Virus record (IMG/VR): IMGVR_UViG_3300025132_008118
Length of the DNA stretch: 64,000 nt
Origin: a virus
Direction: 5' to 3' (one strand)
Shown here: piece after piece, positions 17,547 through 55,645 of the stretch
How positions within the stretch are numbered: the stretch's first letter is position 1
Layout of the letters: every line of letters starts with the position of its first letter
Position numbers and translations under genes: made by a program
Notes under the pieces: generated by a model
What the model was told of the DNA's origin: nothing
Database searches by the model: none
The model's input: the letters and a program-made list of their open reading frames with translations, nothing else

Positions 17547-20500
17547 ATGTCTTTATCTCCAACATATCAAAATTTAAGTGCTTTATCACCTCTTTATTTT
17601 AAAGATTCTGATGAAAAACTAGAATTTATTAATCAAGATAAATTTACATTGCAAGGTTTAAATTTAGTTACATATAATATTAATCAAAGTGCTAATGATA
17701 GTTTTATAAAAAATTACTCAGTAAACAATCTTATTAAAGATAAATCTTCTAGTGAAATTTTTAATTTAACTAGAAAAATAGATACACAAGATTTAAATAC
17801 AAAATTACATTTTAAATCTACCCAAAATTTATTAAGTGCGACATTTTTCTTACAGGTTCTTACTACAGAAGATGATAAAGAAACAGTAGCAACGTTTAAT
17901 ATTGATTTAGAAAATCTTAACGGTTCAAAATTTTTAGTAGATTTTGTAAATAAAGATTTTTGTACAGTATCTTTTTTCGACGGTAAAATTCCTAAATTTT
18001 TATATGATGCTAGCCGGGATGCATTAATTTTTAAATTTTTAAGTACTGAAAAAATACCATTAACATCGTTTTATTATTTTAATTATTTTTATGATAGTGA
18101 AAATAAAAAATTAAGATTATATAAAGATAATAACATAGTAACAACTGTAACAACAGTTTTAACTACTAATGCAAAAGCATTATCCACAGGGTCTGATGGT
18201 TATCAGTTTTTTGTTAATACATTATTATCAGCAGAAATAGATTCTATAGGATTATTACCATCAAATGAGGAAAGATTATCAAACGGTACTATAAGTGTAG
18301 GTAATGAAATTAAATTATTGAATAATGATAATATTGATCAATTTACATATTATGATTTTCAAGATAACTATAGATTATCGAACGATACAATTAGCGGAGT
18401 TAAATATGATTTTTTAACTTATTACACTTATTCAAATGTAATAACAGGTGATAAAAATTATGCTAATTTAAAGTTTTTTAACTTAAAAAATCATATATCT
18501 AACGATAATATCGCTTATGGCGGACCATTAGAAAATAGAGATGACAATTTAGAATATAGGGGTAGAGAATATCAAAATTTTACTAATCAAAAAAGTAAAG
18601 AAAAAGATTTTGATAATATATCTTTAAATTATACTTTTTTCGATAAAGAATATAAAATAGGGTCTAAAGACTACACAGCGTTTACATTACCAGGTGATCT
18701 ATTTCCTTTCCGAAAAATTAATATTAATGATACCGGACTTGCTACTAATGGATCATTTGCAGCAACAAGTCCGTATTTCAGCGATAAAGTATTCAAGCTA
18801 ACCGATACAAATAAAAATAAATTACAAAATAGTTTTATAGAAGATCAGGAATTTTTAGTATTGCAAAATGATGTAAGTTTATTTGTGTTGCAAAGTGGAG
18901 ATCTGTTAGGTTTTCAAAGTATAAATGATACACAGTCAAATGATATTTTCGGTGATTATTTATGTACATGGTTAAAAGGAGATGGAATAACTAAAGGTGT
19001 ATGGTTTGATAGATATTATCTACCTAAAGAAAATTCATATACAGTATCATTCTCCGGTAATTCAAATATTTTTAATAATACAACCCAAGCTGCTGAATTT
19101 TTTAAAAATAATGAAACCGATTTAGTTTATTATGACTTAAAGAGTAATATGACATTCGAACCAAGTGCATCATACGGTTATCAGCGAATTAATAATAAAC
19201 AAATTAATACTTATATCGATGGTCAAAAAGATAAGTTAATAAAAGATTCATTTAATATTCAAACATCAGCTGTACAGATGCAAGATATTAATGAAGTTAA
19301 TCTTAATGACACGAAAGGTTATGATAATTTAGATATACAAGCAATACCTAATAGAGACTTTAATATAGGTTTCGAATTAGAATTAGATTCTCTCTCATCT
19401 TTAGATTCATTTCAGCTAGCTGGTAATTTATATGAAGATGGTTTTGCTTTGAAAAATAACTTTTTCTTTACACCGTTTATATTTATACCACAAGGTAATG
19501 TGGTTCATATATATGATAATAATTTAAAGTTATTGAGATCAAATACATATAAAGATACAGAAAATATTTTAGATGTGCTTTATATAGAACAAAATAATAA
19601 TATAGTTCTAATTTGCGATAATAGGGTAATAAAAACTAATTATTTCGGTGAGATACTAAATGAAAGATTTCCGGATGACGGGTTTGCTAATAGTGCCCTT
19701 TTGTTGGAAATTATTAAATCATATAAAAGTAAAACATACTATGGTTATAATAATGTATTTTTTGTCAGTAACCAATATATAACTAATGATTTTCTTATAA
19801 ATTTCGATTTAAACAATCTTATACCCCTTCGGAGCTCGATTCTACAACAACAATATTTATCTGACCCGTTATCAGCTTCGTATGATAGTTTAGTACCAAC
19901 AGCGACTGGTAGTTATAGATTTCTTAATGGGGTTGAACCGAATAAATTAAACAATAATGTTGCATGTTCATTAGATAATGTTAACAGATTTATATCTAAG
20001 CAATTAATACCAGGTGAAGCCTTTTTAACAACATCATTATCATCCGAACTAAGTGGTGGTATAATACAAGGTCAGTCTTATGATGAAAATTATTATACCG
20101 TTATTCAAACTGCAACCGGTGAACCAACTTTTAATAGTTCATTTTTAACTTATTTTGACTTTATACAAGATGGGAGAGCTAGAATTGTTTTTGATAATTT
20201 AAACGTAGTTCAAAACGAAGACCCAATTTTAGATAGTATAAACGCTCAAATTTACGATATTAATTCGGTTAATGAAAGATTATTTGTACAATATGTAAAC
20301 TTAACAGCTGGTAAAGGGTTTGTGCAAGAGTTTACCCCAGAAAGATTTAAACTTTCAGCGTATGAACTAAGTGAAACGGTAAATACTGGTTATAAGATAG
20401 ATTTTCTTGAGGAAAATAAAGAATTAAAGATAATGTCATTTGCAAGAGACTTATCATCAAATATAGTTGTAGATAAGATAAACGCGACTACCGGTCAACT

Positions 20501-21524
20501 TGAAGAAACGTATAGTTTATTATTAACTGGTCTCGATACTACCAGACGTACTATTTATGCTGCTAATCAAGAAATACCTGTATCGACATTCGGGACTAAT
20601 TCATTAACTGCTCTTTACCCGAAAGGTTTGTACAAATACAGAAGAATAGAAAATAATGCATATGAAGATATTATAGCATTCAATTCTGGACTATCTACTA
20701 AATTTGTAGAATTATCAGTTAACAGACCTCATTTTACCCCAATAAATTATCACGCAATCGATCAAAAGTATAGCTCCTATAGAGATCAGTTAGTATTTAA
20801 ATTTAATCTTAACTCCTTAATTGATGTCGAAACTATAACTGAAAAATGGAACAATGCAGGGCCGCCTTTAACAGCTACAGGTTATTCTGCATTTACTTGG
20901 TCTAACCCAGTTTCATCATTAAGTGCGTGGGATGGAGAGTTTATAATAACAAGCTCAGAAGATTTAGCTAATGTCGAAATAATATTTGTTGTACCAAACG
21001 TTTCAATTAAAAATTATTTTAATATCGATTTAGACTTAAATTTAGGTAAAATAAAATTATACAATAATGGTCTATTTTTTGGAGATATATCTTTTAATCC
21101 GAACCTAATACCAATTGAAAGAATTATCTATCCAGAATTATTTATAAATACACAAAATATTCGAAATATACCTATTGATGAAATAATAAAAGATATTTCA
21201 TATAATAGTTCGGGGGGAACTTTAAAGAACATAAAAGTGCATAACACATCATTTGATCAAAGTTTGATAAATTATTTAGAGTTACAGACTAAACAAATAG
21301 ATCCTTTATATTTTAGAGTACCATGTGGAACTAGAAATAATAATGAAGAAATTGATACGTTATTTACATACAAAATTCCTGGTAATATTAGCAATCATAT
21401 AAAAGTGAACATTAAAGATGTTGATATAAATAATGATATAAAACAAAAGTTAATTGATTATTTACAGCGTTCTGTAGAAGTTATTACACCATCTCAACAA
21501 AAATTAATTTATAACATCGATTAA
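17547..21524 (+). CDS. Large virion structural (baseplate-associated) protein
   Basis: 1325-aa beta-rich ORF with TATAAATA upstream; possible LamG-like C-terminal region. Confidence 0.55.
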   Translation: MSLSPTYQNLSALSPLYFKDSDEKLEFINQDKFTLQGLNLVTYNINQSANDSFIKNYSVNNLIKDKSSSEIFNLTRKIDTQDLNTKLHFKSTQNLLSATFFLQVLTTEDDKETVATFNIDLENLNGSKFLVDFVNKDFCTVSFFDGKIPKFLYDASRDALIFKFLSTEKIPLTSFYYFNYFYDSENKKLRLYKDNNIVTTVTTVLTTNAKALSTGSDGYQFFVNTLLSAEIDSIGLLPSNEERLSNGTISVGNEIKLLNNDNIDQFTYYDFQDNYRLSNDTISGVKYDFLTYYTYSNVITGDKNYANLKFFNLKNHISNDNIAYGGPLENRDDNLEYRGREYQNFTNQKSKEKDFDNISLNYTFFDKEYKIGSKDYTAFTLPGDLFPFRKININDTGLATNGSFAATSPYFSDKVFKLTDTNKNKLQNSFIEDQEFLVLQNDVSLFVLQSGDLLGFQSINDTQSNDIFGDYLCTWLKGDGITKGVWFDRYYLPKENSYTVSFSGNSNIFNNTTQAAEFFKNNETDLVYYDLKSNMTFEPSASYGYQRINNKQINTYIDGQKDKLIKDSFNIQTSAVQMQDINEVNLNDTKGYDNLDIQAIPNRDFNIGFELELDSLSSLDSFQLAGNLYEDGFALKNNFFFTPFIFIPQGNVVHIYDNNLKLLRSNTYKDTENILDVLYIEQNNNIVLICDNRVIKTNYFGEILNERFPDDGFANSALLLEIIKSYKSKTYYGYNNVFFVSNQYITNDFLINFDLNNLIPLRSSILQQQYLSDPLSASYDSLVPTATGSYRFLNGVEPNKLNNNVACSLDNVNRFISKQLIPGEAFLTTSLSSELSGGIIQGQSYDENYYTVIQTATGEPTFNSSFLTYFDFIQDGRARIVFDNLNVVQNEDPILDSINAQIYDINSVNERLFVQYVNLTAGKGFVQEFTPERFKLSAYELSETVNTGYKIDFLEENKELKIMSFARDLSSNIVVDKINATTGQLEETYSLLLTGLDTTRRTIYAANQEIPVSTFGTNSLTALYPKGLYKYRRIENNAYEDIIAFNSGLSTKFVELSVNRPHFTPINYHAIDQKYSSYRDQLVFKFNLNSLIDVETITEKWNNAGPPLTATGYSAFTWSNPVSSLSAWDGEFIITSSEDLANVEIIFVVPNVSIKNYFNIDLDLNLGKIKLYNNGLFFGDISFNPNLIPIERIIYPELFINTQNIRNIPIDEIIKDISYNSSGGTLKNIKVHNTSFDQSLINYLELQTKQIDPLYFRVPCGTRNNNEEIDTLFTYKIPGNISNHIKVNIKDVDINNDIKQKLIDYLQRSVEVITPSQQKLIYNID

Positions 21525-34473: not shown

Positions 34474-34501
34474 TTGATATACCATTTTCTGTCTATATAA
34501 T
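34474..34501 (+). promoter_or_regulatory. Sigma70-like promoter TTGATA-N16-TATAAT, ATG 6 nt downstream
   Basis: Read directly from the sequence; same layout at 8233-8260 (+) and upstream of 52349 (-). Confidence 0.6.
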
Positions 34502-34507
34502 TATAGT

Positions 34508-35299
34508 ATGTTAGTATCTCATGAAAGTCCGATTAGTATTTTAGATAAATCTAAGTTGTATAATGATTACGATTATGCTCTTGTACATTTATTTGAAACC
34601 CAACCCAAGTATTATGACTATTTTAAGAATAGTGTAAAAATAGGTAGAGAAGTTCTCTTAGATAATAGTATTTTTGAACTTGGTGAATCTTTTGAACCAG
34701 GTAAATTTGCTAAATATGTAAAAGAACTTAAACCTTCTTATTATATTGTACCTGATGTTTTAGAAGATGGCTATGCAACTATTAAAAGTTTTCATGAGTT
34801 TACTAATAAGTATACCAATCTACCTGGTTTAAAGATAGGAGCAGTTCAAGGTAAGACATATGATGAAATAGTAGATTGTTATAATTATATGTCAGAAAAT
34901 GCTGATTATATTGCAATTAGTTTCGACTTTAGCTATTATATTGTAACCGGTAAAGGTAAATCAAAACTAGAAAGGTGGTGCGATGGTAGACGTAGATTAA
35001 TAGAACAGTTAAAGAAAGATGGTATTTGGAATAATCAGAAACCTCATCATCTATTAGGTTGTTCATTTGCTAAAGAGTTTAAAAACTACGTAGGGGATAA
35101 AACCATTAGGTCAGTAGATACCTCTAACCCGGTGGTTGCTGGTATTAAGGAACTTAGATATACTGGTAATCTAGGATTAAATGAAAAGCCTTCAATTATG
35201 TTGGCTGATTTAATTGATCACGAAGTTACAGATACACAGATGGAAGACATAGAATATAACGTTAACTGTTTTAAAGATATTATTGACCATGGTAATTAG
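34508..35299 (+). CDS. TGT/DpdA-like TIM-barrel guanine transglycosylase
   Basis: LLDNS, IVPDV, GAVQG, YIAIS, HHLLG and RSVDTS occur in the order expected for TGT-superfamily barrel strands. No Zn-binding Cys cluster. Adjacent to queF. Confidence 0.65.
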   Translation: MLVSHESPISILDKSKLYNDYDYALVHLFETQPKYYDYFKNSVKIGREVLLDNSIFELGESFEPGKFAKYVKELKPSYYIVPDVLEDGYATIKSFHEFTNKYTNLPGLKIGAVQGKTYDEIVDCYNYMSENADYIAISFDFSYYIVTGKGKSKLERWCDGRRRLIEQLKKDGIWNNQKPHHLLGCSFAKEFKNYVGDKTIRSVDTSNPVVAGIKELRYTGNLGLNEKPSIMLADLIDHEVTDTQMEDIEYNVNCFKDIIDHGN

Positions 35300-35837
35300 T
35301 TTTACGGGAGCTCAAAGTACCGGTAAGTCTACTTTACTTACTAAATTGCAAACTGATGAAAGATTTCGTAAGTATAATTTTGTACCGGAAATAACTAGAG
35401 GTTTAAAAAAGAAATATAATCTAGATATCAATGAAGATGGTAATGAATTTACTCAATTATTAACTGTAAATAGTCACTTATATAATTATTTTGACTTTAA
35501 AGGTAAAGATGTGGTATTAGATAGATGTATTTTAGATGGATTGATATATACAACATATCAATATCATACAAAAAAAGTAAGTAAAGAAATATATAATTAT
35601 AGTGAGTATCTCTTTAAGAAATTGATTGGTGAATTGGATATTATACTATATACAGAACCTGATATCCCCTTAGTAGATGATGGAGAGCGTAGCATAGATA
35701 AAGAGTTTCGCGATATTATAGTTAACTTATTTGAAGAGGCAATTAATCATTATAATATTAATGTAATTAGGTTGAGTGGTTCAGTTGATAATCGTATGAA
35801 AACAATTTATAATATAGTAGATAATTATGGCAAATAA
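35283..35837 (+). CDS. P-loop nucleotide kinase (dNMP kinase / AAA_28-like)
   Basis: ISFTGAQSTGKSTL, VPEITR, LDRC.LD, DDGER. Confidence 0.75.
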   Translation: MTMVISFTGAQSTGKSTLLTKLQTDERFRKYNFVPEITRGLKKKYNLDINEDGNEFTQLLTVNSHLYNYFDFKGKDVVLDRCILDGLIYTTYQYHTKKVSKEIYNYSEYLFKKLIGELDIILYTEPDIPLVDDGERSIDKEFRDIIVNLFEEAINHYNINVIRLSGSVDNRMKTIYNIVDNYGK

Positions 35838-36756
35838 AGAATTAGATAATAGTAGAATTAGTAAGCATTTAGGTCAAACGTCTCAATATAAGAGTGCGTA
35901 TGATTCTGAGTTGCTTGTAAGAGAACCTCGTAGTAATAATCGAGTATATTTAAATATATTCGATGATGATTTACCTTTCGTTGGATCTGATACATGGAAT
36001 GCATATGAATGTTCATTCCTTCTAGATAATGGTCGCCCTGTAACAGGCGTTGTGAAGTGTGTATATTCATGCAGTAGTAAATATATCGTTGAAAGTAAGA
36101 GTATTAAATTATACTTTAATTCATTTAATATGACTAAAATGGCTGCTGATAAAGATAAAGCTGTAGTTGCATTCGAAGATACTGCAAGTAAAGATCTAAG
36201 TAGATTATTGCAGACTGATGTTCAGGTTAAATTTCAAGATGGTGATCGTGTTAATAAGAAATTCGATAGTCCTAATATGGAATGGGATATTGATGATTTT
36301 GATAATGTAGATTTACTACAAGATGATAAAGATTTTATATATACTCAATATACTGAGGACCCTAGCCTATTAGAAGGTGTTATTCGTGGAAGAGATTTAG
36401 AGCAAAAGTTTTATTCAGGTCTATTAAAAAGTAATTGCCGTGTTACTTCACAACCAGATTGGGGTGATGTATTTATCTATATTAAATCTAAGACTGCTAT
36501 TGATGCTCATAGTATTAAGAATTATGTTGTATCATATAGAGATGAGTGCCATTTTCATGAAGAGATATGTGAATGCTTTTATAAAAGATTAAAAGATGCT
36601 TTCGATCCTTCTGAACTATTAGTAATGTGTTTATATGCTCGTAGAGGTGGTATTGATATTAACCCTGTAAGAGCTTCAAGTAAAGATCTTATCGAAAAGT
36701 ACGCTGCTAATCTAATTGATCCTGAAGCAGTTCATATTAAAACCTCTAAGCAATAA
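35827..36756 (+). CDS. queF: NADPH-dependent preQ0 reductase QueF (bimodular type)
   Basis: DTWNAYE, VESKSIKLYFNSFN, catalytic SNCRVTSQPDWG, FHEE, YARRGGIDINP.R. Confidence 0.93.
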   Translation: MANKELDNSRISKHLGQTSQYKSAYDSELLVREPRSNNRVYLNIFDDDLPFVGSDTWNAYECSFLLDNGRPVTGVVKCVYSCSSKYIVESKSIKLYFNSFNMTKMAADKDKAVVAFEDTASKDLSRLLQTDVQVKFQDGDRVNKKFDSPNMEWDIDDFDNVDLLQDDKDFIYTQYTEDPSLLEGVIRGRDLEQKFYSGLLKSNCRVTSQPDWGDVFIYIKSKTAIDAHSIKNYVVSYRDECHFHEEICECFYKRLKDAFDPSELLVMCLYARRGGIDINPVRASSKDLIEKYAANLIDPEAVHIKTSKQ

Positions 36757-36828: not shown

Positions 36829-36866
36829 AAACAAAAAGAGACCTGGCTCGTAATGAACCAGGTCTC
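36829..36866 (-). terminator. Rho-independent terminator after the major capsid gene
   Basis: Minus strand GAGACCTGG-loop-CCAGGTCTC followed by TTTTTGTTT. Confidence 0.85.
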
Positions 36867-36891: not shown

Positions 36892-38379
36892 TTAGCCGAA
36901 GTACACCGAGTTAGTACCTGGTGTGAACGCTTCGCCGAGTGACTTAACAATGATAACGTGGTAGTAGAGATTTGCTCCGAAGATATTGTCTACGACACCA
37001 TAACGGGTAAGCAAGCCTACACGTGGCGCGAAGTCATTAGGACCAATTGTTCTCTGAACCATAACTGGAATGTATGGGCAGTAGATGATACCAGTGTCAT
37101 AAAACTCTGGACCCTTGTAACCAAGTAATGCATATTCAGGAGCATCATTCGCAGAGGTTGTAAGACTGTTACCAATCGTTTGACCTTCTGTGCGAGTATC
37201 TCTATATACATTAAAACGACCACCAAGATTACCGATCTTTGCAACGCCTACAGGTTGTGTATTGACATTACCTTGGACTGGTACCCACTGGAATTCAGGG
37301 AGCATTTCCAAGATAGCGCAAACACGAGGTGTTGCAACGATGAAGTTAGCTGCACCACGGCGATTTCTCACTGCGATACGGTTAGCTTCTACGATTAATC
37401 TTTGATAGAAGTCGCGGTTACGTTCTACTAGCCAACGGCCATCTGCAGAAGCAGGGCTCCATGTAGAGTACCCAACTCCGGTACCTGCATTAAGAGCAAC
37501 CTGAATCATTCTCATAAGCATTTCACGGTCGATTTCGGCCTGAATTTCATACGACATAGCGTTTGTCAATTCAGTATCGATATCGATACCATTCATATTC
37601 TTAAGATCCTGTTCAAGTTCAACTGACCAACGTGCGCCTAAGCGACGTGTACCAGCTTCAACTGCTGTCTTTTCGAAAGAAACTTCCATAGTAGGGATAT
37701 TACCCGTTACTTCGAAGTTTCTAAGAAGAGCAGCTACACCATCATCTTTCGCGTTAAAAGCGAAGTCTGTGTTACCAGAAAGGTAACCAGCAGATGTACC
37801 GGTGTAATTAGTATAAAGCTCTTGGTAACCAGCTTCTGCATTCGCAGCAGTTGCTAATGCATTAACCTGGCCAGATGGAGAGTTACCAGCTGCTGACTTA
37901 CCATCGATGCCATCACCAAGTGTTTCACCTGAGTAACGATAACGAAGAGCAAATGCAAGGCCAACTGGACCCGCCATTGGTTGAACACCAACGATTTCAT
38001 TTGTAATTAACTCGGGAAAAGTACGACGAATCATTGGGATAAGAATCTTTGGAAGACGGAAGTCATTCGTAGCATATGTGTCCGAACCAGGTGTACCGCT
38101 AGCAACGGAACCAGCACCGATAGATGCAGCACCACCAAGTGATCCATCTCTACCAGCTAAGTTACCATTAATGCCTGTACTACCATAGTTAGGTCCAGCT
38201 TCTTTCAAACACCATGTTTCTTGATTTTCAAGAAGCATTGCAGTGTTTAAACGAGTATGACTATCTTCAATCGCTGCAACACTCTTTGAAGTGTAATCCA
38301 GAACTGGAGCCCACTTTTCAAGTAGTTGCGACGCACGATTCTCATCGATATAAGCCTGTGAAGGGCGTATTGAATTCAT
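36892..38379 (-). CDS. Major capsid protein gp23
   Basis: LLEKWAPVL, LLENQ, VGVQPM.GPVGL.FALR, AGTRRL.A.WS.EL.QDL, GIDIDTEL, GYKG, YCPYIP, TRYG. Confidence 0.97.
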   Translation of the reverse strand: MNSIRPSQAYIDENRASQLLEKWAPVLDYTSKSVAAIEDSHTRLNTAMLLENQETWCLKEAGPNYGSTGINGNLAGRDGSLGGAASIGAGSVASGTPGSDTYATNDFRLPKILIPMIRRTFPELITNEIVGVQPMAGPVGLAFALRYRYSGETLGDGIDGKSAAGNSPSGQVNALATAANAEAGYQELYTNYTGTSAGYLSGNTDFAFNAKDDGVAALLRNFEVTGNIPTMEVSFEKTAVEAGTRRLGARWSVELEQDLKNMNGIDIDTELTNAMSYEIQAEIDREMLMRMIQVALNAGTGVGYSTWSPASADGRWLVERNRDFYQRLIVEANRIAVRNRRGAANFIVATPRVCAILEMLPEFQWVPVQGNVNTQPVGVAKIGNLGGRFNVYRDTRTEGQTIGNSLTTSANDAPEYALLGYKGPEFYDTGIIYCPYIPVMVQRTIGPNDFAPRVGLLTRYGVVDNIFGANLYYHVIIVKSLGEAFTPGTNSVYFG

Positions 38380-40497: not shown

Positions 40498-42363
40498 TTA
40501 ATGCGTTACAGTCCAGCCTTTATCCGTTGCAATAGCTTCAACTTCTGCTGGTATATTATCAGCATAATCATTGTTAGTTAAAGTTATAGTAAATGAACCT
40601 GTTTTTAAATATCTAAATACATTTTCTATATTTTGGTGATCAAGTGGAAAGTATCTTAAACTAATACTTTGACTAAAACCTGTTTCATCAGATGATAACC
40701 CTGGAAATTCAAAATTAGCAATATTATAAGCGTTACTAAACGTACCAGAATAATCACCACTATCATTTGCAGCATTAAAAGGCAACCCGGTTATTTTACT
40801 TAGCATATAATTTTGATAAAACATTTGATAGTACTCACCATTTCCAAATGTTTCGTCAACTGCAAAACCTGAAAATGTTACAGTTTTTAAACTTCTATTA
40901 GCAAAAAACATTCTATATATAGCGTTATTATTAGTCATTGTATTTGGACTAAATTTTAGTATTGGGTATTCCTTTATACAATAATTACCATTAAAGCCGT
41001 CTTGTAAATCTATTAAATTATCAAAATCAAAATAACCCTTTTCATAATATTCAGGAGCAAAAAATTGAGCTCCACGACCATGTCTCGTAAAACCAACACC
41101 ATAGCTACCACTATCTGTTTGATTATTTATTACATCTAATTCTACCCCTACATATGGTAATATTTGTTGTGTCTCGCGCATACCCTGATACATATAACCC
41201 CTACAGTTAATAGAACGTGGTTGTTTAGCAGATGAATCCATGTCTTGTAAGTTCCAATCTCCAAAACTTTCTAAACGTACAGCATTATAAAGCATCAAAT
41301 ATAATTGCTCTGAAGAAGAAGTAGTTATATTATTAGCTCTAAAATTTTTAGGAAGTCGTTTTAAATACTGGCAATCTTGAAACATTGACCTAACATGTAT
41401 ATGACTACCGGATGTCCTGCAAGGTAATTCTGGTATATAACATAATTTGTAATTATACCTAAACATAAACCTATAATCTGTCACATTGGCTAATTCTGCC
41501 TGCGTACCTTGTTTAGTAAATATACCTTCGGGTAAATACTCTAATTTATGGCAGCTATCAAAACAATAATACATGCTATTAGAATTCCAAAACCAATACC
41601 TATCCGGATCAGCAAAATCATCTGGTAAAAATCTTAGTTCACTACAATATCTAAATGCTTCAGAGTGAGATTCAGTGGTATCTACATGCATATAAGGTAC
41701 ATGTACAATTTCTTGTAATGACTGCATACCGCTCCATATTCCGTTCTGCGGGGTAGTTAATCTATTACTTGTTGTATTATATAAGGCAACTCTTTCGCAC
41801 ATCTTATGTGGTCTAGAATTACCACCGATATCATAATTTGTAGCGTTACCGCTACTTATTTCCATATCTAGAATATTAGAATTATTTCTAGCAGATTCAC
41901 TTATTATACCACCAGAAAACGGGCCGTCGATATCTGTTACAACCGCTGAAAATTTATTATTACTATCTGTAGGGTAACCTGATAGAACTACTTGTCTGTA
42001 ACCTCTAAACTCACTTGATGCAGGTAAGTTATCATAATTATAAACGTGAAAGTGGTCAGTATTTTGAGCTAAGTTTTCAATAGTACCATCACCCCAATCA
42101 ACTGTAAATGTACCGCTATTAGTGACATCACAATGTATAGCAACATTATTAATAGCAGATATGGACGGTGCACCTGTTATTTGATTTGCTAAATATGTTT
42201 GATTACCTGGATTTGGTAAAACTGCAACTAAGAATGTAAACATTTCTGTTACCCCTGGTTCAGGAATAACTGCTAAATCTAAAAACTCAGTAGGCCTCGT
42301 ATAATAAAAATTAGCAAGGTTGGATGTTGATAACGGTGCTGGTCCTAATGTTCTTCCTATCAT
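40498..42363 (-). CDS. Adhesin-like protein, PKD-like N-terminus plus BspA/DUF285-like repeats
   Basis: FTVDWGDGT; recurring MF..C..L..LP units; ends IATDKGWTV. Confidence 0.6.
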   Translation of the reverse strand: MIGRTLGPAPLSTSNLANFYYTRPTEFLDLAVIPEPGVTEMFTFLVAVLPNPGNQTYLANQITGAPSISAINNVAIHCDVTNSGTFTVDWGDGTIENLAQNTDHFHVYNYDNLPASSEFRGYRQVVLSGYPTDSNNKFSAVVTDIDGPFSGGIISESARNNSNILDMEISSGNATNYDIGGNSRPHKMCERVALYNTTSNRLTTPQNGIWSGMQSLQEIVHVPYMHVDTTESHSEAFRYCSELRFLPDDFADPDRYWFWNSNSMYYCFDSCHKLEYLPEGIFTKQGTQAELANVTDYRFMFRYNYKLCYIPELPCRTSGSHIHVRSMFQDCQYLKRLPKNFRANNITTSSSEQLYLMLYNAVRLESFGDWNLQDMDSSAKQPRSINCRGYMYQGMRETQQILPYVGVELDVINNQTDSGSYGVGFTRHGRGAQFFAPEYYEKGYFDFDNLIDLQDGFNGNYCIKEYPILKFSPNTMTNNNAIYRMFFANRSLKTVTFSGFAVDETFGNGEYYQMFYQNYMLSKITGLPFNAANDSGDYSGTFSNAYNIANFEFPGLSSDETGFSQSISLRYFPLDHQNIENVFRYLKTGSFTITLTNNDYADNIPAEVEAIATDKGWTVTH

Positions 42364-45300
42364 TGTAAATTACCTCCTAAAAATGCAATAGTTTCATTTT
42401 TATAAAAAATATCTGCTTGTGCATATATAATGCTCATTTGATTTCTATCTTGATAACTATATAACCCGCTTAAACCTGTACCTGTGCTGAATACAACCGG
42501 AGACGCTCCTGCTTCCTTGATATATCTTGCAGAATATCCAGATATCTGAGGGGTAAACGTTACGTTAATAGTACCACTAGTAGTATCTAATAATAATGTT
42601 CTACCATTATCTGATAACGACGGTGTAAATGATGCAGCACAAGTTATAATTGAACCACCACCGACTCTAACCCCATCTAAAGAAGTTATTGAACAACTAT
42701 TAATTACACCTGGAGTGCTTAAATTATTAACAAACGTTGTACAAGCGGCATTAGATGATAAACTGGTACCTATAATAAAGGAACTATTATGGTCTGAATT
42801 TATACGATTACTAGCCCCTCCTAAAATAGAACCAAATGAACTGTAATTATTATTATAACAACCACCAACTACTGATGATGTTGTACCGAATGTGCGATTA
42901 AAACAACCACCAACGATAACTGCTGCAGAGCCGGCCGCTGTATTACTAAATCCACCCCCGATAAAATCTTCTGAACTTAATGCTAAATTTTTAACACCAC
43001 CAACGATAACTGAAGCTGTACCTATAGTTCTATTACCTTTATATTGACCACCACCACCAACGATAACTGAACATGCTCCACATGCGTAATTACTTTGACC
43101 TCCGACTACAATAGCGTTATTTGCTTCAGTTCTATTTGCATTTCCATTACCTATAAAAGAAATGTGACCCCTTGCATGATTACCGACACCGCCACCTACA
43201 AATGAGTAGTCACCACATGCATAATTATAATACCCACCAACTACACTACTATGTACACACTTAGCTAAAGAAGAAGAACCGCCACCTACAAATGATTTAA
43301 CTCCGCAAGCTTGATTATTTTGACCGCTACCTATAAAAGAACGAGAACCTATAGCTCTGTTAGTATATCCGCCACCTACAAATGAATGTGTTCCACATGA
43401 TCTATTATAATACCCACCACCTACAAATGAACAAGCACCAGTAGCGCAGTTCTTCTTACCACCAACAATAGATGTATATATACCGCACGATTTATTATAA
43501 CCGCCTCCAACCATAGTTGAACAAGCAGAAAGAGCTTGATTGCATTTACCACCACCGGTAAATGCTGCGGCACAATGCGCTATATTACGGAAGCCACCAC
43601 CAACAACAGAATAAGTACCAAGAGTTTGATTTCGGTAGCCGCTACCTATATTACTATAACTACCAATAGCGCAGTTATAACGACCGCTTCCAACAAACGT
43701 ACCACCACCGCCGGCACAATTTCTATAACCTCCACCTGCTACAGAACCAAAACCAGTAGCTGAAAGGCCATTGCCAGTTATAACAGACGCACATACACCG
43801 GTGACTTTATTATTTATACCGCCGCCGATAAACGATGCTGCTCCAGTGTTTATACTATTGATACCACTTGTAATCTTTGTTGCTGATAATCCATCTACAA
43901 ATAAACTATTAGTAGTTGTATTACCTTGAGTTGTAACTTGTTGTAATGTAGGCGTTGAAGGGGTAGGTACCGATGTACATACTGCTAAGCCTCCTGAAAA
44001 TACATTATTAGCGGATAAATCTCCACTTGCTGATATATTACCTGAAACAGTTAATAGTTCAGTTGGTGATGTAGCTCCTATACCGACATTACCTGTTTCA
44101 GTTATACAAACTCTAGTTGAGTTATTAGTTAAAAGTCTTAAGGGTTGCGAGTCGCATGTACCTATATGGAATGTCTTTACAGTAGATTTCATACAAACGC
44201 CACCAGCATCTAAATCAAAATCTATATTTGACGTTCCTCTACTAATTCGTGCGTACTTTCCGGAAAAGCCAGAATAACTAATATCTAACTTAGCTTCTGG
44301 CGATGTAGTACCTATACCAACTGCATCCGCAAAATGACCTGCTGAAGAAGCAATTGTATTAGTTGCTGATATGTTACCTGAAACCGTTAATACTTCAGTA
44401 GGTGATGTAGTATTTATACCGACTTTACCAGCAGTATCTACAGTCATAGCTTCTATACTACAGTTAAAAATTCCTAATTTTGTATGGTCGCTTCCACCAC
44501 TTTGATCCATACCTTTACTATTTCCTCGTACACCTCTTAAACCTAAACTTTGACCAGCTCGAACTGATTTACCGTTAAAACAAACATCATTACTATCTAT
44601 AGTTATTATTTCATTAGCATCTGTATCTACAATATTACCACCAAGTTCTAAATTACCGGTTGAGATTATTTTAGTACCTTTTATATCTGCTGCAGATAAA
44701 TTACCACTAGCTGATATGTTACCTGCAACAGTTAATTTTTCAGTACCACCTGTCGTACCTATATTAACCTTACCTGTAGGTATTCTAAGTTCATGTGAAG
44801 CATTACCACATAACATTGTTATATGATTTGAAAGACTACCTAAAATTAAACATTGGTTACCTATTATTGGGTGAATACAAAAAGCACCACCTGTTTGTAT
44901 TAGTTGTGTTCTTTTTCCTGAACTATTACTACCATGTATTGTGATACACTGATTTTCATTTTCATTAGGAAAACCTACATCTAAATCACCAGCAATAATT
45001 ACATTATCGGTAAATTTTGCATCTATACCATCTGTAGATAAAGCAGGTGTAGTTAAACTACCACTAGATATATTACCACTAGCTGATAAATTACCTGTAA
45101 CGTTAAAACCTGATAATTCAAATCCTATATCTAAATTAGTAGCAGATAAAATATTTGTAGCAAGTATAGTATCAGCAATAATCGTATTGTTACTACTAAT
45201 TAAATTTGTAGTGGTATTACCATTATTAGTTACATCTTGTAAATTAATTGAAGTATCTGAATTAAAAATATCAATTAAGTTAGTTCCCCCAGATAATATA

Positions 45301-46517
45301 TTACCATTAACGTTTAGAGTACCGTCCATTGTACCACCAGCAGCGAATTGTTTTGCCACACTACCACCACCAGAAGACATTTCTACATATCTTTTTAAAG
45401 AAACTATATCACCTTTTAATGCACTGCTGATTTCTTCCTGTAAAGACTCTTTTATTTGGGTAAGTTCAACATCTTGTATCTTTTCTTTTAAAATTGTTTT
45501 ATACTCTACAACATCTTTATTATTAAAAGCAGCTAATAATTCATCATATTTTTTATTTTCTTCTTCAGATAAATTTTTAAACTTACTATCGATATCCTTA
45601 AATTCTTCATTAATAAATTTTTTAAGTTCTTCATTTTTTAAAACCAATTCATCCTGTTCTAATAGTTTTTCTTTTAAAGAATTTAATTCTTCAAATTTTT
45701 TATTTGTTGTGCTATTATTCTCTTTTAATTTTTCTTTTATAGAATTTAGTTCTAAAAAATTATGAGTAATTTTTTTATCACTAGATATAATTTTATTTTT
45801 ATATTCTTTAGTTATACCCTCTAAAAATAAATTTACACTACTATCAATCTCATTTATTTTCGTTTCTAAAATATTATCGATATTTTGTTTACTGAAATCT
45901 TCTACACCTTGAAGTTCTGATTGAAGCACTGTAAACTTTTCGTTTAAATCAGCAGTTATCTTTTCTAACTTTTCTTCAACTATTACTTTTTTTTTATCTT
46001 CTAACTTTTCGAAAAATAAATCTAACTTATTAGATATATCATCTTTTAAAGATACAATTTTTTCTTCAAATTGTTCCTCTAATTCATGAAGAAAAACTAA
46101 TTTGTTATTAACATGGTGTTCAATAATATTTTCATAATTAACCTCTACATTATCTGAAGTTTCATCTTCAACTTCACTCTCTTCAACTTCACTCTCTTCT
46201 ACGGTTAAATTTTCATTAGGTATGGTTCTAATAAAATATATATTTTCTTTATTCAATTCAACATATGTTGAACCGTTATCCACTAAAATAGCTTCTGCAG
46301 AATACTTTTTACCTTCAATATTAATTTCAAGTAAAACTTTTGGCCCTAATTCTGAATCTCCTACCTTTTCTAAAACTAATTTTTCGTCGTTTATTGTACA
46401 CTCGTATACATCGAAGAATAATTCCTTTTTTGTATCGATAGAAATAATATTTTCTTCTATAGTATCTGAATAAATTAAATCTATATCAATATTGTTGACT
46501 TGACATACTGCAGGCAT
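42360..46517 (-). CDS. Long fibre protein: acidic coiled-coil N-terminus, fibre modules, ~23 Gly-rich 15-aa beta-roll repeats
   Basis: LQ.VT..GNTTTN twice, GI(G/N)TTSP...LTVSGNISA modules, N.A.G..S(F/V)(V/I)GGG repeats. Confidence 0.75.
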   Translation of the reverse strand: MPAVCQVNNIDIDLIYSDTIEENIISIDTKKELFFDVYECTINDEKLVLEKVGDSELGPKVLLEINIEGKKYSAEAILVDNGSTYVELNKENIYFIRTIPNENLTVEESEVEESEVEDETSDNVEVNYENIIEHHVNNKLVFLHELEEQFEEKIVSLKDDISNKLDLFFEKLEDKKKVIVEEKLEKITADLNEKFTVLQSELQGVEDFSKQNIDNILETKINEIDSSVNLFLEGITKEYKNKIISSDKKITHNFLELNSIKEKLKENNSTTNKKFEELNSLKEKLLEQDELVLKNEELKKFINEEFKDIDSKFKNLSEEENKKYDELLAAFNNKDVVEYKTILKEKIQDVELTQIKESLQEEISSALKGDIVSLKRYVEMSSGGGSVAKQFAAGGTMDGTLNVNGNILSGGTNLIDIFNSDTSINLQDVTNNGNTTTNLISSNNTIIADTILATNILSATNLDIGFELSGFNVTGNLSASGNISSGSLTTPALSTDGIDAKFTDNVIIAGDLDVGFPNENENQCITIHGSNSSGKRTQLIQTGGAFCIHPIIGNQCLILGSLSNHITMLCGNASHELRIPTGKVNIGTTGGTEKLTVAGNISASGNLSAADIKGTKIISTGNLELGGNIVDTDANEIITIDSNDVCFNGKSVRAGQSLGLRGVRGNSKGMDQSGGSDHTKLGIFNCSIEAMTVDTAGKVGINTTSPTEVLTVSGNISATNTIASSAGHFADAVGIGTTSPEAKLDISYSGFSGKYARISRGTSNIDFDLDAGGVCMKSTVKTFHIGTCDSQPLRLLTNNSTRVCITETGNVGIGATSPTELLTVSGNISASGDLSANNVFSGGLAVCTSVPTPSTPTLQQVTTQGNTTTNSLFVDGLSATKITSGINSINTGAASFIGGGINNKVTGVCASVITGNGLSATGFGSVAGGGYRNCAGGGGTFVGSGRYNCAIGSYSNIGSGYRNQTLGTYSVVGGGFRNIAHCAAAFTGGGKCNQALSACSTMVGGGYNKSCGIYTSIVGGKKNCATGACSFVGGGYYNRSCGTHSFVGGGYTNRAIGSRSFIGSGQNNQACGVKSFVGGGSSSLAKCVHSSVVGGYYNYACGDYSFVGGGVGNHARGHISFIGNGNANRTEANNAIVVGGQSNYACGACSVIVGGGGQYKGNRTIGTASVIVGGVKNLALSSEDFIGGGFSNTAAGSAAVIVGGCFNRTFGTTSSVVGGCYNNNYSSFGSILGGASNRINSDHNSSFIIGTSLSSNAACTTFVNNLSTPGVINSCSITSLDGVRVGGGSIITCAASFTPSLSDNGRTLLLDTTSGTINVTFTPQISGYSARYIKEAGASPVVFSTGTGLSGLYSYQDRNQMSIIYAQADIFYKNETIAFLGGNLQ

Positions 46518-46551: not shown

Positions 46552-47034
46552 TTATATGTTCAATTCTTTTTCTGTTAAGATTAAAAACTTACAACCTTTT
46601 TTCTTTGACCATTCATTTGCAGCTTTCCATTTAGCTGTATTTTGGACATACATCTTTTGCTCGTATATGATAGTCTTTTGTTTTTTAAATTTAGTTTTAA
46701 CTGGTCTTAAAGTCTGTTTACTTGGTTTAATCTCTATTAGAAACTTATTTTTATTACCATTCTTATCTTTAAAGACGATATAATTATCAACAAAATATCT
46801 ATGAACTTTACCATCTAAAGGATTTAAATAAGGTATTATAATATTTTCACTACCCCAAGCTAATATATTTTCATTTAAATCTGCCCATCTAAAAAATTTT
46901 AACTCCCAGCCAGAACGATATGTAGGGTTACCTTTACCTATATATTTTTGTGAATTAATAGGTTTAAAAATGCCTTGACGAAATTTTTTATTCTTTTTAA
47001 TAAATATAGTTATGACATTTGAAGAGAAAATCAT
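46552..47034 (-). CDS. Head completion nuclease gp4-like (TnsA-like PD-(D/E)xK)
   Basis: YRSGWE..F..WAD, WGSE...PY, HRYFVD, IEIKP..QT, KW.AA..W. Start position uncertain. Confidence 0.85.
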   Translation of the reverse strand: MIFSSNVITIFIKKNKKFRQGIFKPINSQKYIGKGNPTYRSGWELKFFRWADLNENILAWGSENIIIPYLNPLDGKVHRYFVDNYIVFKDKNGNKNKFLIEIKPSKQTLRPVKTKFKKQKTIIYEQKMYVQNTAKWKAANEWSKKKGCKFLILTEKELNI

Positions 47035-47530
47035 TAAGAATAGTGAAATAAGACAAAAAAATTTAATGCGACCAGCTAAAATTGCATTTGAAAAACCAGA
47101 TACTGGTGTGACTATTAATAAAAAGGGTGCATATTTTTTAATTAAAGACTCTGCTGATATAACTGTGAAATATTTACCATTATTATCGTATGGTAGTTTT
47201 AAGAATCCCATTATAGATTTAAAAGGTAAATTTACTCAATCAGAAATTATTGATTTCGTGGGTAGAGCAAAAGAAGAAAGTTATACTAATCAATTATTAA
47301 GTGTAATTTTAACTGATATTGGTTGTACTCAACCTATAACTCAAATCGTAGATGATAATAAATCTGAAGAATTGGATTTATCTTTTAGTGATGACGAAGA
47401 TGTTTACGGTGATTATGAAACCGAAGAAGAGGTTACTATTAAAAACTCTTCATCCACCACCCAAGCAATAGATGTCGAAGATGCCAGTATAGTTATTCAA
47501 AAGCTTATAGAAGTTTTTAACGCTAAATAA
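47012..47530 (+). CDS. Hypothetical late protein
   Basis: TAAATA 5 nt upstream; acidic C-terminal region. Confidence 0.6.
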   Translation: MTFEEKIIKNSEIRQKNLMRPAKIAFEKPDTGVTINKKGAYFLIKDSADITVKYLPLLSYGSFKNPIIDLKGKFTQSEIIDFVGRAKEESYTNQLLSVILTDIGCTQPITQIVDDNKSEELDLSFSDDEDVYGDYETEEEVTIKNSSSTTQAIDVEDASIVIQKLIEVFNAK

Positions 47531-51884: not shown

Positions 51885-52349
51885 TTATTTATCCCAAGGA
51901 AACTGTAACCAGCGAGTAGTATATAAAGTATTACCGGAAATAATGTTATTATTGAATTCAGAACCATCTCTTTTTACTAAACTAGCATACAAAATATCAT
52001 CACTATTAACTTTATAATTGCGATTTAATATAGAATTTACTGCAGTAAAAGTTCGCCCACTATCATTAATATCATCTACAACTAATATTTTTGAGCCTTC
52101 TTTAATACTATCAGGTCGTTGATATACTATTGTATCGAGATACTTACCATTCTCTTGCCTAGTATTAATTCCGATATTATAAAGCGTCTTTATATCTAAT
52201 TTATAACTTAACATAGCTCCAGGTATTAAACCACCTCTGCCTAAGGCTGCAATGCAATCAAATTGCATATTTTTATTTTTTATTTGTTCAGCTAAACATT
52301 CAGTTAAAAAATCTATATTATTCCAAGTTAATTTTAATATATCCTCCAC
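51885..52349 (-). CDS. Type I phosphoribosyltransferase (purine PRT, gpt-like)
   Basis: ALGRGGLIPG..L, PRPP-binding ILVVDDINDSGRT, W..FPWD end. Confidence 0.85.
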   Translation of the reverse strand: MEDILKLTWNNIDFLTECLAEQIKNKNMQFDCIAALGRGGLIPGAMLSYKLDIKTLYNIGINTRQENGKYLDTIVYQRPDSIKEGSKILVVDDINDSGRTFTAVNSILNRNYKVNSDDILYASLVKRDGSEFNNNIISGNTLYTTRWLQFPWDK

Positions 52350-53725: not shown

Positions 53726-54103
53726 TTAAACGTAACCAAGTTGATATAATCTTCTAAGTGTAGGTCCAACTGAGTTATTACCCTGAGCAGAAAGTGTTTG
53801 TAGATTACTACCACCTGTAAGAGCTCTTGTAAAAGTAAATTGAGTTGCTTTTCTATCACCATTAATGACTGCTAGTTCTTTTCCGATATATGCATTATCA
53901 ATATCTAATTCATATACAATATCATCTATCTTTGCGCTAACAGTTGCTTGATGTGTCTGTAATGTATCTTCTTTGGTAAATAAAACTTTTGCAGAAGATC
54001 CATCTGATACTATCATACCTGATACACCTGTTATAGATGTTTGTTCATCTGCTAAACCAAAAGTAGTTTCGTTAAAAAATGCTATGTTGTCTCCGAGTGC
54101 CAT
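53726..54103 (-). CDS. Hypothetical late protein
   Basis: 125 aa; TAAATA 5 nt upstream. Confidence 0.6.
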   Translation of the reverse strand: MALGDNIAFFNETTFGLADEQTSITGVSGMIVSDGSSAKVLFTKEDTLQTHQATVSAKIDDIVYELDIDNAYIGKELAVINGDRKATQFTFTRALTGGSNLQTLSAQGNNSVGPTLRRLYQLGYV

Positions 54104-54119
54104 GTAATTATTTAATCAA

Positions 54120-54422
54120 TTAGATGTTAAGATTACGAAGTCTTTGTCTTCTTTGTTCATCAGTTTCTTCAACTTGCACCTCTTCAGCTGAAACCCCAAT
54201 GTCTGCTACTTGCTCTACTAGCTTTTCTTTAGTTAGTCTCTTGTCAAGCTCTACGCCATCTTCTCTTGCTAACTCTTCAAGCTGATCTTTAGATAAAGAA
54301 GAGATATGCTTTTCAAGCTGTTTAACCATTTTAGATTTTAAGAGCCTTCTATCTAACTCTACACCATACTTACGGGCAAGTTCTTCAAGCTCTTCTTTAG
54401 ATAATTTAGAATATTCACTCAT
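54120..54422 (-). CDS. Protein with two Rho-N/HeH-like helical repeats
   Basis: LSKEELEELARKYGVELDRRL.K and LSKDQLEELAREDGVELDKRL.K. Likely start MSEY at 54422 after TATAAATA. Confidence 0.65.
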   Translation of the reverse strand: MSEYSKLSKEELEELARKYGVELDRRLLKSKMVKQLEKHISSLSKDQLEELAREDGVELDKRLTKEKLVEQVADIGVSAEEVQVEETDEQRRQRLRNLNI

Positions 54423-54502
54423 ACTATTATTTATACAATCGCGCAAAATTCCCCGACACCAAACAAAGCGCGGATTTGTCGCAGATGGTCTTAAATAAAA
54501 AT

Positions 54503-54925
54503 ATGTACGAATATAAAGCAGTAGTAACTCGAGTTGTTGATGGTGATACCGTCGACGTTGATATAGATTTAGGTTTTAATGTATGGCTTAAAAAGCAGCG
54601 CATTCGCCTCTATGGTATAGATACACCAGAGAGTAGAACATCAGATAAGGTAGAGAAGGTATTTGGTAATCTAGCTAAGTCTAAAGTGTTAGAATTTTGC
54701 CCAGTAGGCTCAAATATTATACTCCAAACCAAAACCGATGATAGTAGAGGTAAGTATGGTAGAATTTTAGGTGAGCTAGTTACACTAGAAGGTACTAATG
54801 TTAATACCTTTCTTATAGAGAACAATTACGGTGTTGCTTACTTTGGTAAGTCTAAAGATGAGATAGCTGATGAGCAATTAGCTAACAGGGATATACTAAT
54901 AGAAAAAGGTGAAGTTACTCTTTAG
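54503..54925 (+). CDS. Staphylococcal-nuclease-like (SNase/thermonuclease) protein
   Basis: VTRVVDGDTVDV, RIRLYGIDTPE, GKYGRILG. Likely start MYEY at 54503. Confidence 0.88.
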   Translation: MYEYKAVVTRVVDGDTVDVDIDLGFNVWLKKQRIRLYGIDTPESRTSDKVEKVFGNLAKSKVLEFCPVGSNIILQTKTDDSRGKYGRILGELVTLEGTNVNTFLIENNYGVAYFGKSKDEIADEQLANRDILIEKGEVTL

Positions 54926-55617: not shown

Positions 55618-55645
55618 CCAACAACAACACACTATCTAATTAGAC

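Follow-up and report, generated by a model that had tools for sequence, protein, structure and literature searches.

To our knowledge, phages that carry a transglycosylase of the DpdA3 subfamily are the only ones in which all guanine is replaced by a 7-deazaguanine, and nobody has yet demonstrated the mechanism. Phages CP220, phiST and immuto combine DpdA3 with complete replacement of guanine, and the authors who measured the modifications propose post-replicative insertion for DpdA3 too (Cui, Hutinet et al. 2023). In this model, DpdA3 acts with high efficiency as a transglycosylase on finished phage DNA, where it exchanges guanine for preQ1. A kinase and a phosphoribosyltransferase (PRTase) would then serve only to support supply: the PRTase would return the released guanine via GMP to GTP for FolE, and the kinase would aid general or guanine nucleotide turnover.

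We analysed a 64-kb stretch of viral DNA (the window) and found three genes that together form a cassette of the DpdA3 type for the modification of DNA with a 7-deazaguanine; they belong to a marine T4-like phage that is uncultured (Table 1). The same gene order on one strand is seen in the large myovirus immuto, with a DpdA3 that is 51% identical, an AAA_28 kinase that is 34% identical and a bimodular QueF; a guanine-type PRTase is also encoded in both genomes. In contrast to immuto, the clade of the window has no gene for the formyltransferase DpdN separating DpdA3 from the kinase and no PRA-PH/MazG-like gene beside DpdA3, it uses FolE2 in place of FolE, the cassette of the window is placed inside a block of structural genes, and the predicted base is dPreQ1 rather than fdPreQ1. 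CP220, a Campylobacter phage (Firehammervirus), is likewise a T4-like phage with AT-rich DNA and a gene for an XGPRT-like PRTase; its DpdA3 (gp056, 48% identity) is directly followed by an AAA_28 kinase (37% identity). It differs from the window in that its DpdA3 region contains no annotated QueF, in an additional HD + kinase fusion upstream of DpdA3 and in its base, dADG (Cui et al. 2023).

Table 1. Position of the cassette genes and associated features in the window
Feature	Coordinates	Strand	Basis
Candidate sigma-70-like promoter	34474..34501	+	TTGATA-16-TATAAT, 11/12 consensus match
DpdA3-subfamily TGT-fold transglycosylase, 263 aa, without Zn site	34508..35299	+	Homology, fold
P-loop nucleoside/nucleotide kinase (AAA_28), 182 aa counted from ATG	35289..35837	+	PF13521, profile, fold
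Bimodular QueF (preQ0 to preQ1 reductase), 309 aa	35827..36756	+	PF14819 + PF14489
Xanthine/guanine-type purine phosphoribosyltransferase, 154 aa, candidate module accessory	51885..52349	-	PF00156

Organization of the cassette

The three ORFs overlap and span positions 34508–36756 of the plus strand, which agrees with the arrangement described in the first-pass annotation. The DpdA3 and kinase ORFs share 17 nt (11 nt if counted from the kinase ATG), and the kinase and QueF ORFs share 11 nt. For the kinase, we place the start at ATG 35289, as in its relatives, with TTG 35283 as the alternative. The cassette forms a plus-strand island with baseplate genes on one side and the major capsid gene on the other.

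The first-pass annotation also placed all three genes under one promoter. A TTGATA-16-TATAAT site is indeed present, but promoter-like sites are not enriched in this AT-rich stretch (20 found, 17.7 expected from shuffled sequences), and the -10 element of the site stops 6 nt short of the ATG. A single promoter for the three genes is thus plausible, and the site itself is a candidate only. Since DpdA3 is homologous to the published proteins and has a TGT-family fold, since QueF is present and since relatives encode the genes of preQ0 synthesis, the identity of the module is secure.

The transglycosylase DpdA3

The first gene encodes all the TGT-type motifs listed in the first-pass annotation: D52-N-S, P82-D83-V, G111-A-V-Q-G115, H181-L-L-G184 and S202-V-D204-T-S206. 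Residues D52, P82, D83, G115, H181, L183, G184, D204 and S206 are invariant among 60 diverse homologues. The zinc motif CxCxxC...H is absent from all 263 residues, and the aligned ranges of the structures place the C-terminus where the Zn subdomain of TGT would start. The protein has no match to Pfam or NCBIfam models at an E-value of 0.01 or better, including the TGT model PF01702; it does match phrog_19058 (4.7e-63). In tblastn comparisons with the three founding DpdA3 proteins, E-values range from 3e-8 to 4e-71 with 75 to 97% of the protein covered, and the identity of 27% to phiST CGPG_00065 adds to those given above for immuto (YP_010114477) and CP220. From these similarities, we assign the protein to the DpdA3 subfamily (Cui, Hutinet et al. 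2023), which had already been named and tied to complete guanine replacement, a point missing from the first-pass annotation.

The AlphaFold model (pLDDT 97) predicts a TGT-type (beta/alpha)8 barrel. Its best structural matches are ArcTGT (Z 18.0, 233 aligned residues, rmsd 2.9) and DpdA (Z 16.8), followed by bacterial TGT (Z 15.8) and QTRT2 (Z 15.4), and Foldseek gives an E-value of 8e-9 (about 1e-8). Among generic barrels, PdxJ reaches Z 15.2 and others 13.3 or less; Cap10 reaches Z 14.8. Both the motifs and the leading structural matches thus bear out the earlier description of a TGT-type barrel without a Zn site. With bacterial DpdA (PDB 7ui4) and the tRNA-guanine transglycosylases, DpdA3 shares its (beta/alpha)8 fold of TGT type as well as the nucleophile segment HLLG...D(S/T), which a family profile aligns to 7ui4 with an E-value of 0.085. 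DpdA3 differs from them in being approximately 150 residues shorter and in having no zinc site and no Pfam TGT match; the identity is 10 to 12%. Based on the segment alignment with 7ui4 and on knowledge of the family, D52 (the first Asp, in DxS) and D204 (the nucleophile, in SxDTS after HLLG) are the predicted TGT-type catalytic aspartates.

Long DpdA3 homologues are fusions to formyltransferase (P0139, P0180), NUMOD3 or DUF3310 domains; a Rosetta-stone check found no kinase fusions among them. The DpdA3 family is mostly acidic, with a median pI of 5.5, an observation too weak to be weighed.

QueF and the supply of preQ0

The third gene encodes a full, two-domain QueF, as had been proposed, with PF14819 (QueF_N; 4e-31, 108 bits) and PF14489 (QueF; 3e-21, 75.8 bits) both above their cut-offs. 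It aligns with Vibrio cholerae QueF (PDB 3bp1) at 1e-40, including the SNC...QPDWG segment with the catalytic cysteine and the FHE motif; the score for TIGR03138 is 238 bits, which is below the cut-off of 293.

The genes for preQ0 synthesis lie outside the window, and we read the completeness of the pathway from two collinear IMG/VR relatives, G001, which is 88% complete and whose DpdA3 is 83% identical, and G002, which is 100% complete. Both contain FolE2, QueD, radical-SAM enzymes (one QueE-like) and QueC, the complement that the first-pass annotation had suggested looking for. Since QueF is part of the cassette and the rest of the pathway is present in the relatives, DpdA3 is encoded together with the genes of 7-deazaguanine synthesis. 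DpdN is absent from the near-complete relatives of the phage, and PF00551 has no match anywhere in the complete genome of G002. A formyltransferase of G001 might have been a DpdN that had moved elsewhere, but we rejected this reading, since the protein shows only 22% identity to DpdN and its gene is 21 kb away from the cluster of sugar-modification genes near FolE2 and QueD. Because the DpdN formyltransferase is absent, the predicted DNA base is dPreQ1.

The kinase and its linkage to DpdA3

The middle gene matches PF13521 (AAA_28) over model positions 2–164 of 164 (1e-16, 62.1 bits, cut-off 27). A profile of the kinase family finds the ribosylnicotinamide kinase domain of NadR (NadR-RNK) at 1.8e-5 and, over the full length, Aquifex thymidylate kinase (TMPK) at 3.1e-5; the Pfam TMPK model has no match in the ORF. 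Thus, TMPK is a superfamily relative, and thymidylate kinase is the label found in phage records. The predicted structure (pLDDT 91) matches NadR-RNK (Z 18.9 and 17.9), vaccinia TMPK (15.6), dGK (15.2) and polynucleotide kinase (9.4). By profile and modelled fold, we therefore class the enzyme as NadR-RNK/TMPK/dNK-like and not polynucleotide-kinase-like, and a small nucleoside or nucleotide is the expected substrate. The earlier designation as a P-loop dNMP-kinase-like protein holds as far as a small-molecule nucleoside/nucleotide kinase is concerned, but dNMP is just one option, since the nearest solved relatives are nucleoside kinases (NadR-RNK, dGK, dAK) no less than NMP kinases. Complex prediction for DpdA3 and the kinase gave a median score of 0.14 (mark 0.32), which counts neither way.

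The three-gene synteny is conserved in relatives, a check that the first-pass annotation had proposed. The AAA_28 kinase adjoins DpdA3 in 58 of 65 viral contigs from IMG/VR; in four others it is approximately 10 kb away, and three loci are cut off. In metagenome-assembled genomes (MAGs), it adjoins DpdA3 at 7 of the 11 informative loci; no kinase is present within 5 kb at three loci from gut MAGs and at one with the order MazG-DpdA3-DpdN. For distant DpdA3 homologues, most contigs are too short for linkage to be read. Directly upstream of DpdA3, phiST and Chryseobacterium phage MA9V-3 instead encode a kinase of the AAA_18/AAA_33 type, which is unrelated, and Bacillus phage BSTP12 encodes a P-loop protein there. 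NTP-cleaving enzymes are found beside DpdA3 elsewhere: MazG-like proteins (phiST, L087), PRA-PH (immuto) and the HD + kinase protein (CP220). Members of the HD, MazG and PRA-PH families are not found in the clade of the window (five relatives searched for these three families).

A purine phosphoribosyltransferase

The PRTase matches PF00156 (7.5e-10) and GpT-2 (PDB 4z1o; 4e-12), and NF006613 at 8e-20 but below the cut-off. Homologues occur in only 31 of 50,697 phage records; 24 of these come from the three groups of DpdA3 phages, and DpdA3 itself is present in at least 23. A purine PRTase and DpdA3 co-occur in four separate lineages. The PRTase of the window is 26% identical to that of immuto, which is itself situated inside the immuto Que cluster. 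Among the 7-deazapurine PRTases TubE/ToyH of Streptomyces nucleoside antibiotics, the purine-type enzyme TubE has been shown to join a 7-deazaguanine base (CDG) to PRPP (PMC6112128), a precedent for the formation of a 7-deazaguanine ribonucleotide by the PRTase of the window. The candidate PRTase of the window is closest to xanthine/guanine PRTases. The enzyme could provide a second route into nucleotides.

How the modified base may reach DNA

The position of the kinase between DpdA3 and QueF hints at entry via free nucleotides, in contrast to the published editing of finished DNA. Judging from the functions of the respective families, preQ0 would be made by FolE2, QueD, a QueE-like radical-SAM enzyme and QueC, encoded elsewhere in the genome, and QueF would convert it to preQ1. 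DpdA3, apparently a bare TGT barrel with two catalytic aspartates and guanine-recognition motifs, would exchange guanine for preQ1 on a deoxyguanosine-bearing substrate. Exchange on dGMP, or on a nucleotide or nucleoside related to it, is one conceivable entry, which we consider doubtful; coupling of the base to PRPP by the guanine-type PRTase, followed by ribonucleotide reduction, is another and seems improbable to us. With either entry, the adjacent kinase would phosphorylate the nucleoside or nucleotide of the 7-deazaguanine, which may be a poor substrate for host kinases, and the resulting triphosphate would be incorporated by the polymerase of the phage, giving dPreQ1 as the predicted DNA base. 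That the base reaches DNA at least partly in this manner is plausible though unproven, and we put the chance not far below even. The full version of the proposal, with DpdA3 as the first TGT-fold enzyme to act on free nucleotides, the kinase carrying its product toward the triphosphate and every genomic guanine replaced by dPreQ1 in this abundant marine T4-like lineage, is rather unlikely.

A route through free nucleotides is supported by the small-substrate class of the kinase, its adjacency to DpdA3, its non-homologous replacement, the NTP-cleaving neighbours, the co-occurrence of the PRTase and the TubE precedent. Furthermore, all cases of complete base replacement that we know to have been characterised in phages (hmC in T4, hmU in SPO1, U in PBS and Z in S-2L) take place at the nucleotide level. 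We know of no TGT or DpdA enzyme tested so far that does not act on a polynucleotide, which counts against such a route, as does the fact that kinase adjacency is not universal. The exclusion of dGTP would also be left without explanation, since none of the HD, MazG or PRA-PH enzymes was found and a ribonucleotide reductase is encoded by these phages as well. A formal parallel may be drawn with the pre-replicative hmC system of T4 (dCMP hydroxymethylase, dNMP kinase and dCTPase), since the window, too, has a base-altering enzyme beside a dedicated kinase for nucleotides, in a phage that is T4-like and whose relatives fully replace one base. We infer this likeness in logic only: there is no homology, and an enzyme destroying the canonical dNTP was not found here among the HD, MazG and PRA-PH families. 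The first-pass annotation took the position of the kinase to mean that the base is exchanged on dGMP or a related nucleotide. A free-nucleotide step is partly supported, since it fits a kinase whose sequence and fold both point to small-molecule nucleosides or nucleotides as substrates; exchange on dGMP specifically is weakened by the alternative PRTase entry and by the lack of a dGTP-clearing enzyme among the families searched in the lineage. Our literature searches found no paper that gives DpdA3 a nucleotide substrate or treats the neighbouring kinase. Free ADG nucleoside in CP220-infected cells, according to the passage of Cui et al. (2023) that cites it, may be counted for the nucleotide route, and we also count for it the failure of DpdA3 to modify DNA in E. 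coli reported there.

Exchange on finished DNA, the model of Cui et al. (2023), is nevertheless a strong rival and has a considerable chance of being right. Among the nearest solved relatives of DpdA3 are DpdA, which inserts preQ0 into DNA (Z 16.8), and tRNA transglycosylases, the catalytic motifs are kept, no dGTP-excluding enzyme was found in the lineage (HD, MazG and PRA-PH searched), and recycling of guanine by an XGPRT-like enzyme would make stoichiometric sense. However, we know of no characterised post-replicative enzyme that gives complete base replacement. Compared with DpdA and TGT, DpdA3 is also missing the Zn subdomain together with insertions of about 150 residues, and a dedicated small-substrate kinase is kept beside it across lineages, even via non-homologous replacement; the median pI of 5.5 points the same way, if weakly. 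Attempts to obtain DpdA3 activity on DNA in E. coli were unsuccessful (Cui et al. 2023).

The kinase itself could have an unrelated function. Its best sequence and structure matches are the RNK domains of NadR, and QueF consumes NADPH, so a ribosylnicotinamide kinase that boosts NAD(P) for QueF, unconnected with deazaguanine nucleotides, might be envisaged. This is very unlikely, since the ORF reaches just 38 of the 341 bits required by the NadR equivalog TIGR01526, with only the kinase part aligned, has no NMN adenylyltransferase (NMNAT) partner domain and matches TMPK almost as well as NadR. Moreover, Campylobacter phages keep the same kinase family beside DpdA3 although their 12.7-kb DpdA3 region is without an annotated QueF, and their deazaguanine synthesis stops at CDG (Cui et al. 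2023). A kinase that acts on DNA ends like polynucleotide kinase, mending nicks left by failed base exchange, would suit the label ‘polynucleotide kinase’ on these genes in some database records and the weak match (2e-4) of the neighbouring kinase of phiST to bacterial Pnkp. With a Z-score of 9.4 to polynucleotide kinase, against 15 to 19 to nucleoside and nucleotide kinases, and with no phosphatase or ligase partner within the cassette, we regard this role as most improbable.

Implications

If DpdA3 acts on free nucleotides, the published rule that every 7-deazaguanine modification of DNA is post-replicative would be wrong for the DpdA3 class. Such a route would represent new chemistry for the TGT superfamily, a fourth nucleotide pathway to an alternative base beside those for hmC, hmU and Z, and an enzymatic source of 7-deaza-dGTP analogues. 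The window adds a compact, DpdN-less form of the system, for which plain dPreQ1 is predicted. The DpdA3 family comprises approximately 4,000 homologues, many of them of marine metagenome origin, so that genomes with full substitution of guanine may be frequent in marine waters, with a bearing on the evasion of restriction and CRISPR and on the quality with which such DNA is sequenced.

The cassette and its surroundings

The window is AT-rich (G+C ~30%) and encodes T4-like structural proteins, among them gp23, a prohead protease, a portal, a gp15-like protein and a baseplate spike. Its capsid protein is only ~33% identical to the best cultured-phage match, those matches being cyanophages, and the phage therefore belongs to an uncultured, deep-branching T4-like lineage. 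The cassette forms a three-gene plus-strand island flanked by baseplate genes on one side and gp23 on the other, all of these flanking genes lying on the minus strand. The first-pass annotation had placed its genes under one promoter. A well-matching -35/-10 pair is indeed present, but such pairs are no commoner than the AT-rich background would lead one to expect and this one nearly abuts the start codon, so that the single promoter is a candidate only.

Features of the window
Feature	Position	Strand	Remarks
-35/-10 pair	34474-34501
Cassette gene 1 (DpdA3)	34508-35299	+	ORF, overlaps gene 2
Cassette gene 2 (kinase)	35283/35289-35837	+	ORF, overlaps genes 1 and 3
Cassette gene 3 (QueF)	35827-36756	+	ORF, overlaps gene 2
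Hairpin, 12 bp	36838-36866	-	T-run on this strand
gp23 major capsid protein	36892-38379	-
Xanthine/guanine-type purine phosphoribosyltransferase	51885-52349	-	sequence matches
TnsA-like ORF	46552-47211	-	N-terminal endonuclease domain, 5.6e-18
Very large ORF	11783-15085		1100 aa
Very large ORF	17547-21524		1325 aa
Very large ORF	42360-46517		1385 aa
G+C-raised stretch	54000-62000		ORFs ≤152 aa only
tRNA-Met (CAT)	62847-62923	-	ARAGORN and Rfam

Between gp23 and QueF, immediately past the former, the strong hairpin could act as a terminator for transcription from either direction. The TnsA-like ORF within the head and tail gene block is probably a homing-type selfish element; relative L007 carries a similar gene (15681-16136). 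The three very large ORFs presumably encode tail-fibre or other structural proteins. G+C rises to 0.39-0.40 in the raised stretch, compared with ~0.28 on either side, and no Rfam family was found there, the sole match being the single tRNA gene beyond it.

DpdA3

The ORF 34508 protein is 51% identical to the Flavobacterium phage immuto protein annotated DpdA, 48% to CP220 gp056 and 27% to phiST CGPG_00065, which are founding members of a subfamily to which Cui, Hutinet et al. (NAR 2023, PMC10516641) gave the name DpdA3. It has no Pfam or NCBIfam match; metagenomes hold ~4,000 homologues, with 1,629 cluster representatives at E ≤0.001. All the TGT-type motifs quoted in the first-pass annotation are found in the protein and, as claimed there, the zinc-binding cysteine cluster is absent. 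When 60 diverse homologues are aligned, every one keeps the HLLG motif and the aspartates within DNS, PDV and VDTS. A profile of the family also places the HLLG...D(S/T) segment in alignment with DpdA.

AlphaFold models the protein with very high confidence (pLDDT 97), and the model's top matches are members of the TGT family: archaeosine TGT (Z 18.0), the bacterial DNA preQ0 insertase DpdA (16.8), bacterial TGT (15.8) and QTRT2 (15.4), in agreement with Foldseek (E ~1e-8). The generic barrel PdxJ scores 15.2 and other unrelated barrels ≤13.3. Cap10 of a CBASS system (PDB 9ntn; Z 14.8), a TGT-like protein that joins deazaguanine to protein, illustrates that substrates of this fold extend beyond nucleic acids.

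Guanine is completely replaced in CP220 (dADG), phiST (dDG) and immuto (fdPreQ1), and DpdA3 tests in E. coli were unsuccessful (PMC10516641). The word 'kinase' does not occur in the text of Cui et al., who set aside phiST CGPG_00066 because homologues are missing from other phages (PMC10516641).

The kinase

The middle gene encodes an AAA_28 P-loop kinase (Pfam), much as first read, and its relatives begin at ATG 35289. With the family profile, thymidylate kinase (3.1e-5) is hit nearly as well as NadR ribosylnicotinamide kinase (1.8e-5). The model (pLDDT 91) matches NadR-RNK (Z 18.9 and 17.9), Vaccinia TMPK (15.6), human deoxyguanosine kinase (15.2), deoxyadenosine kinases (~15) and polynucleotide kinase (9.4). 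Profile scores and Z values together point to a small-substrate kinase, acting on either a nucleoside or a nucleotide. Despite the NadR matches we consider an NAD-salvage kinase very improbable, and a DNA-end kinase scarcely credible.

The order DpdA3-kinase-QueF recurs in long metagenomic contigs at the same site between baseplate genes and gp23. The kinase lies directly downstream of DpdA3 in 58 of 65 IMG/VR loci; in four an AAA_28 kinase is ~10 kb away, and three are cut off. Among 15 MAG contigs, 11 are informative and seven of these have the kinase within ~2 kb; the other four are one MazG-DpdA3-DpdN contig and three from the gut. DpdN is absent from the window's clade (DpdA3 identity at least 65%); more distant clades have it after DpdA3 and ahead of the kinase, and it is also found fused to DpdA3. 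CP220 has an AAA_28-family kinase immediately after DpdA3 and an HD-kinase fusion before it. An unrelated AAA_18/AAA_33 kinase immediately precedes DpdA3 in phiST and Chryseobacterium phage MA9V-3, as does a P-loop protein the DpdA3-like gene of Bacillus phage BSTP12 (L083 3896-6692). The BSTP12 gene, wrongly labelled NadR, and the start of PolA (DNA polymerase I) overlap by 8 nt, and immuto has a family A polymerase just downstream of QueF; a tie between DpdA3 and a dedicated polymerase is possible. NTP-cleaving enzymes adjoin DpdA3 in phiST, immuto, CP220 and metagenomic locus L087; searches of the window's near-complete relatives, G001 and G002 included, turned up no enzyme of the HD, MazG or PRA-PH families.

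The cassette is also a hot spot for mobile endonucleases. In the 209-kb relative L004, a NUMOD3-type homing endonuclease separates DpdA3 from the kinase, with a GIY-YIG endonuclease located after QueF (10850-11614, 13049-13756).

QueF and the preQ pathway

Gene 3 encodes the full QueF proposed earlier, with two QueF domains and the catalytic cysteine segment. The window is collinear with G001, a 185-kb IMG/VR contig. Both G001 (88% complete) and G002 (100% complete) carry QueC, QueD, FolE2 and radical-SAM enzymes; given these genes, the window phage should make preQ0 and, via QueF, preQ1. No formyltransferase was found in G002, and G001 has only a distant one, 21 kb away from the block of sugar genes that adjoins FolE2 and QueD. 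On this basis the predicted DNA base is dPreQ1. The sugar-modifying run in G001 (L076 11369-14965) comprises a glycosyltransferase, a PIG-L deacetylase, a polysaccharide deacetylase and an epimerase.

A phosphoribosyltransferase

The purine phosphoribosyltransferase (PRTase) escaped the first-pass annotation. Homologues occur in only 31 of 50,697 phage records, and 24 of the 31 come from the three phage groups with DpdA3 (15 Campylobacter, 5 Cellulophaga and 4 Flavobacterium); DpdA3 itself occurs in 30 records. The immuto gene lies within the Que cluster, and a PRTase also turned up in each of the four large relatives searched. TubE, a purine PRTase, has been demonstrated to join 7-carboxy-7-deazaguanine to PRPP (PMC6112128). 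By analogy, the window enzyme could build a 7-deazaguanine ribonucleotide, a second entry to the nucleotide pool; alternatively, it could recycle guanine freed by DpdA3.

Discussion

The complete base replacements characterised in phages are, to our knowledge, all pre-replicative. This rule argues for some nucleotide-level route to DNA, as do the type of kinase and the persistence with which a kinase, in some phages a non-homologous one, accompanies DpdA3. So do the NTPases that neighbour DpdA3 in other lineages, the presence of the PRTase and the pared-down barrel without its zinc subdomain. Free ADG nucleoside in infected cells, cited in a passage of Cui et al. (PMC10516641), points the same way. 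However, every assayed TGT/DpdA enzyme uses polynucleotides, the experimentalists themselves propose post-replicative insertion (PMC10516641), and no means of excluding dGTP is seen in the window's lineage, although ribonucleotide reductase is encoded. We therefore hold a nucleotide-level route only tentatively, at slightly less than an even chance, and regard purely post-replicative exchange as a strong rival, only somewhat less probable. As to the form of a nucleotide-level route, DpdA3 acting on dGMP-type substrates, as originally proposed, is rather unlikely, and entry through the PRTase is decidedly doubtful.

Linkage of the kinase or the PRTase to DpdA3 is not discussed in the literature searched. 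The cassette belongs to a known, named class, DpdA3, and its clade-specific form, with FolE2, without DpdN and inside the structural block, is new.
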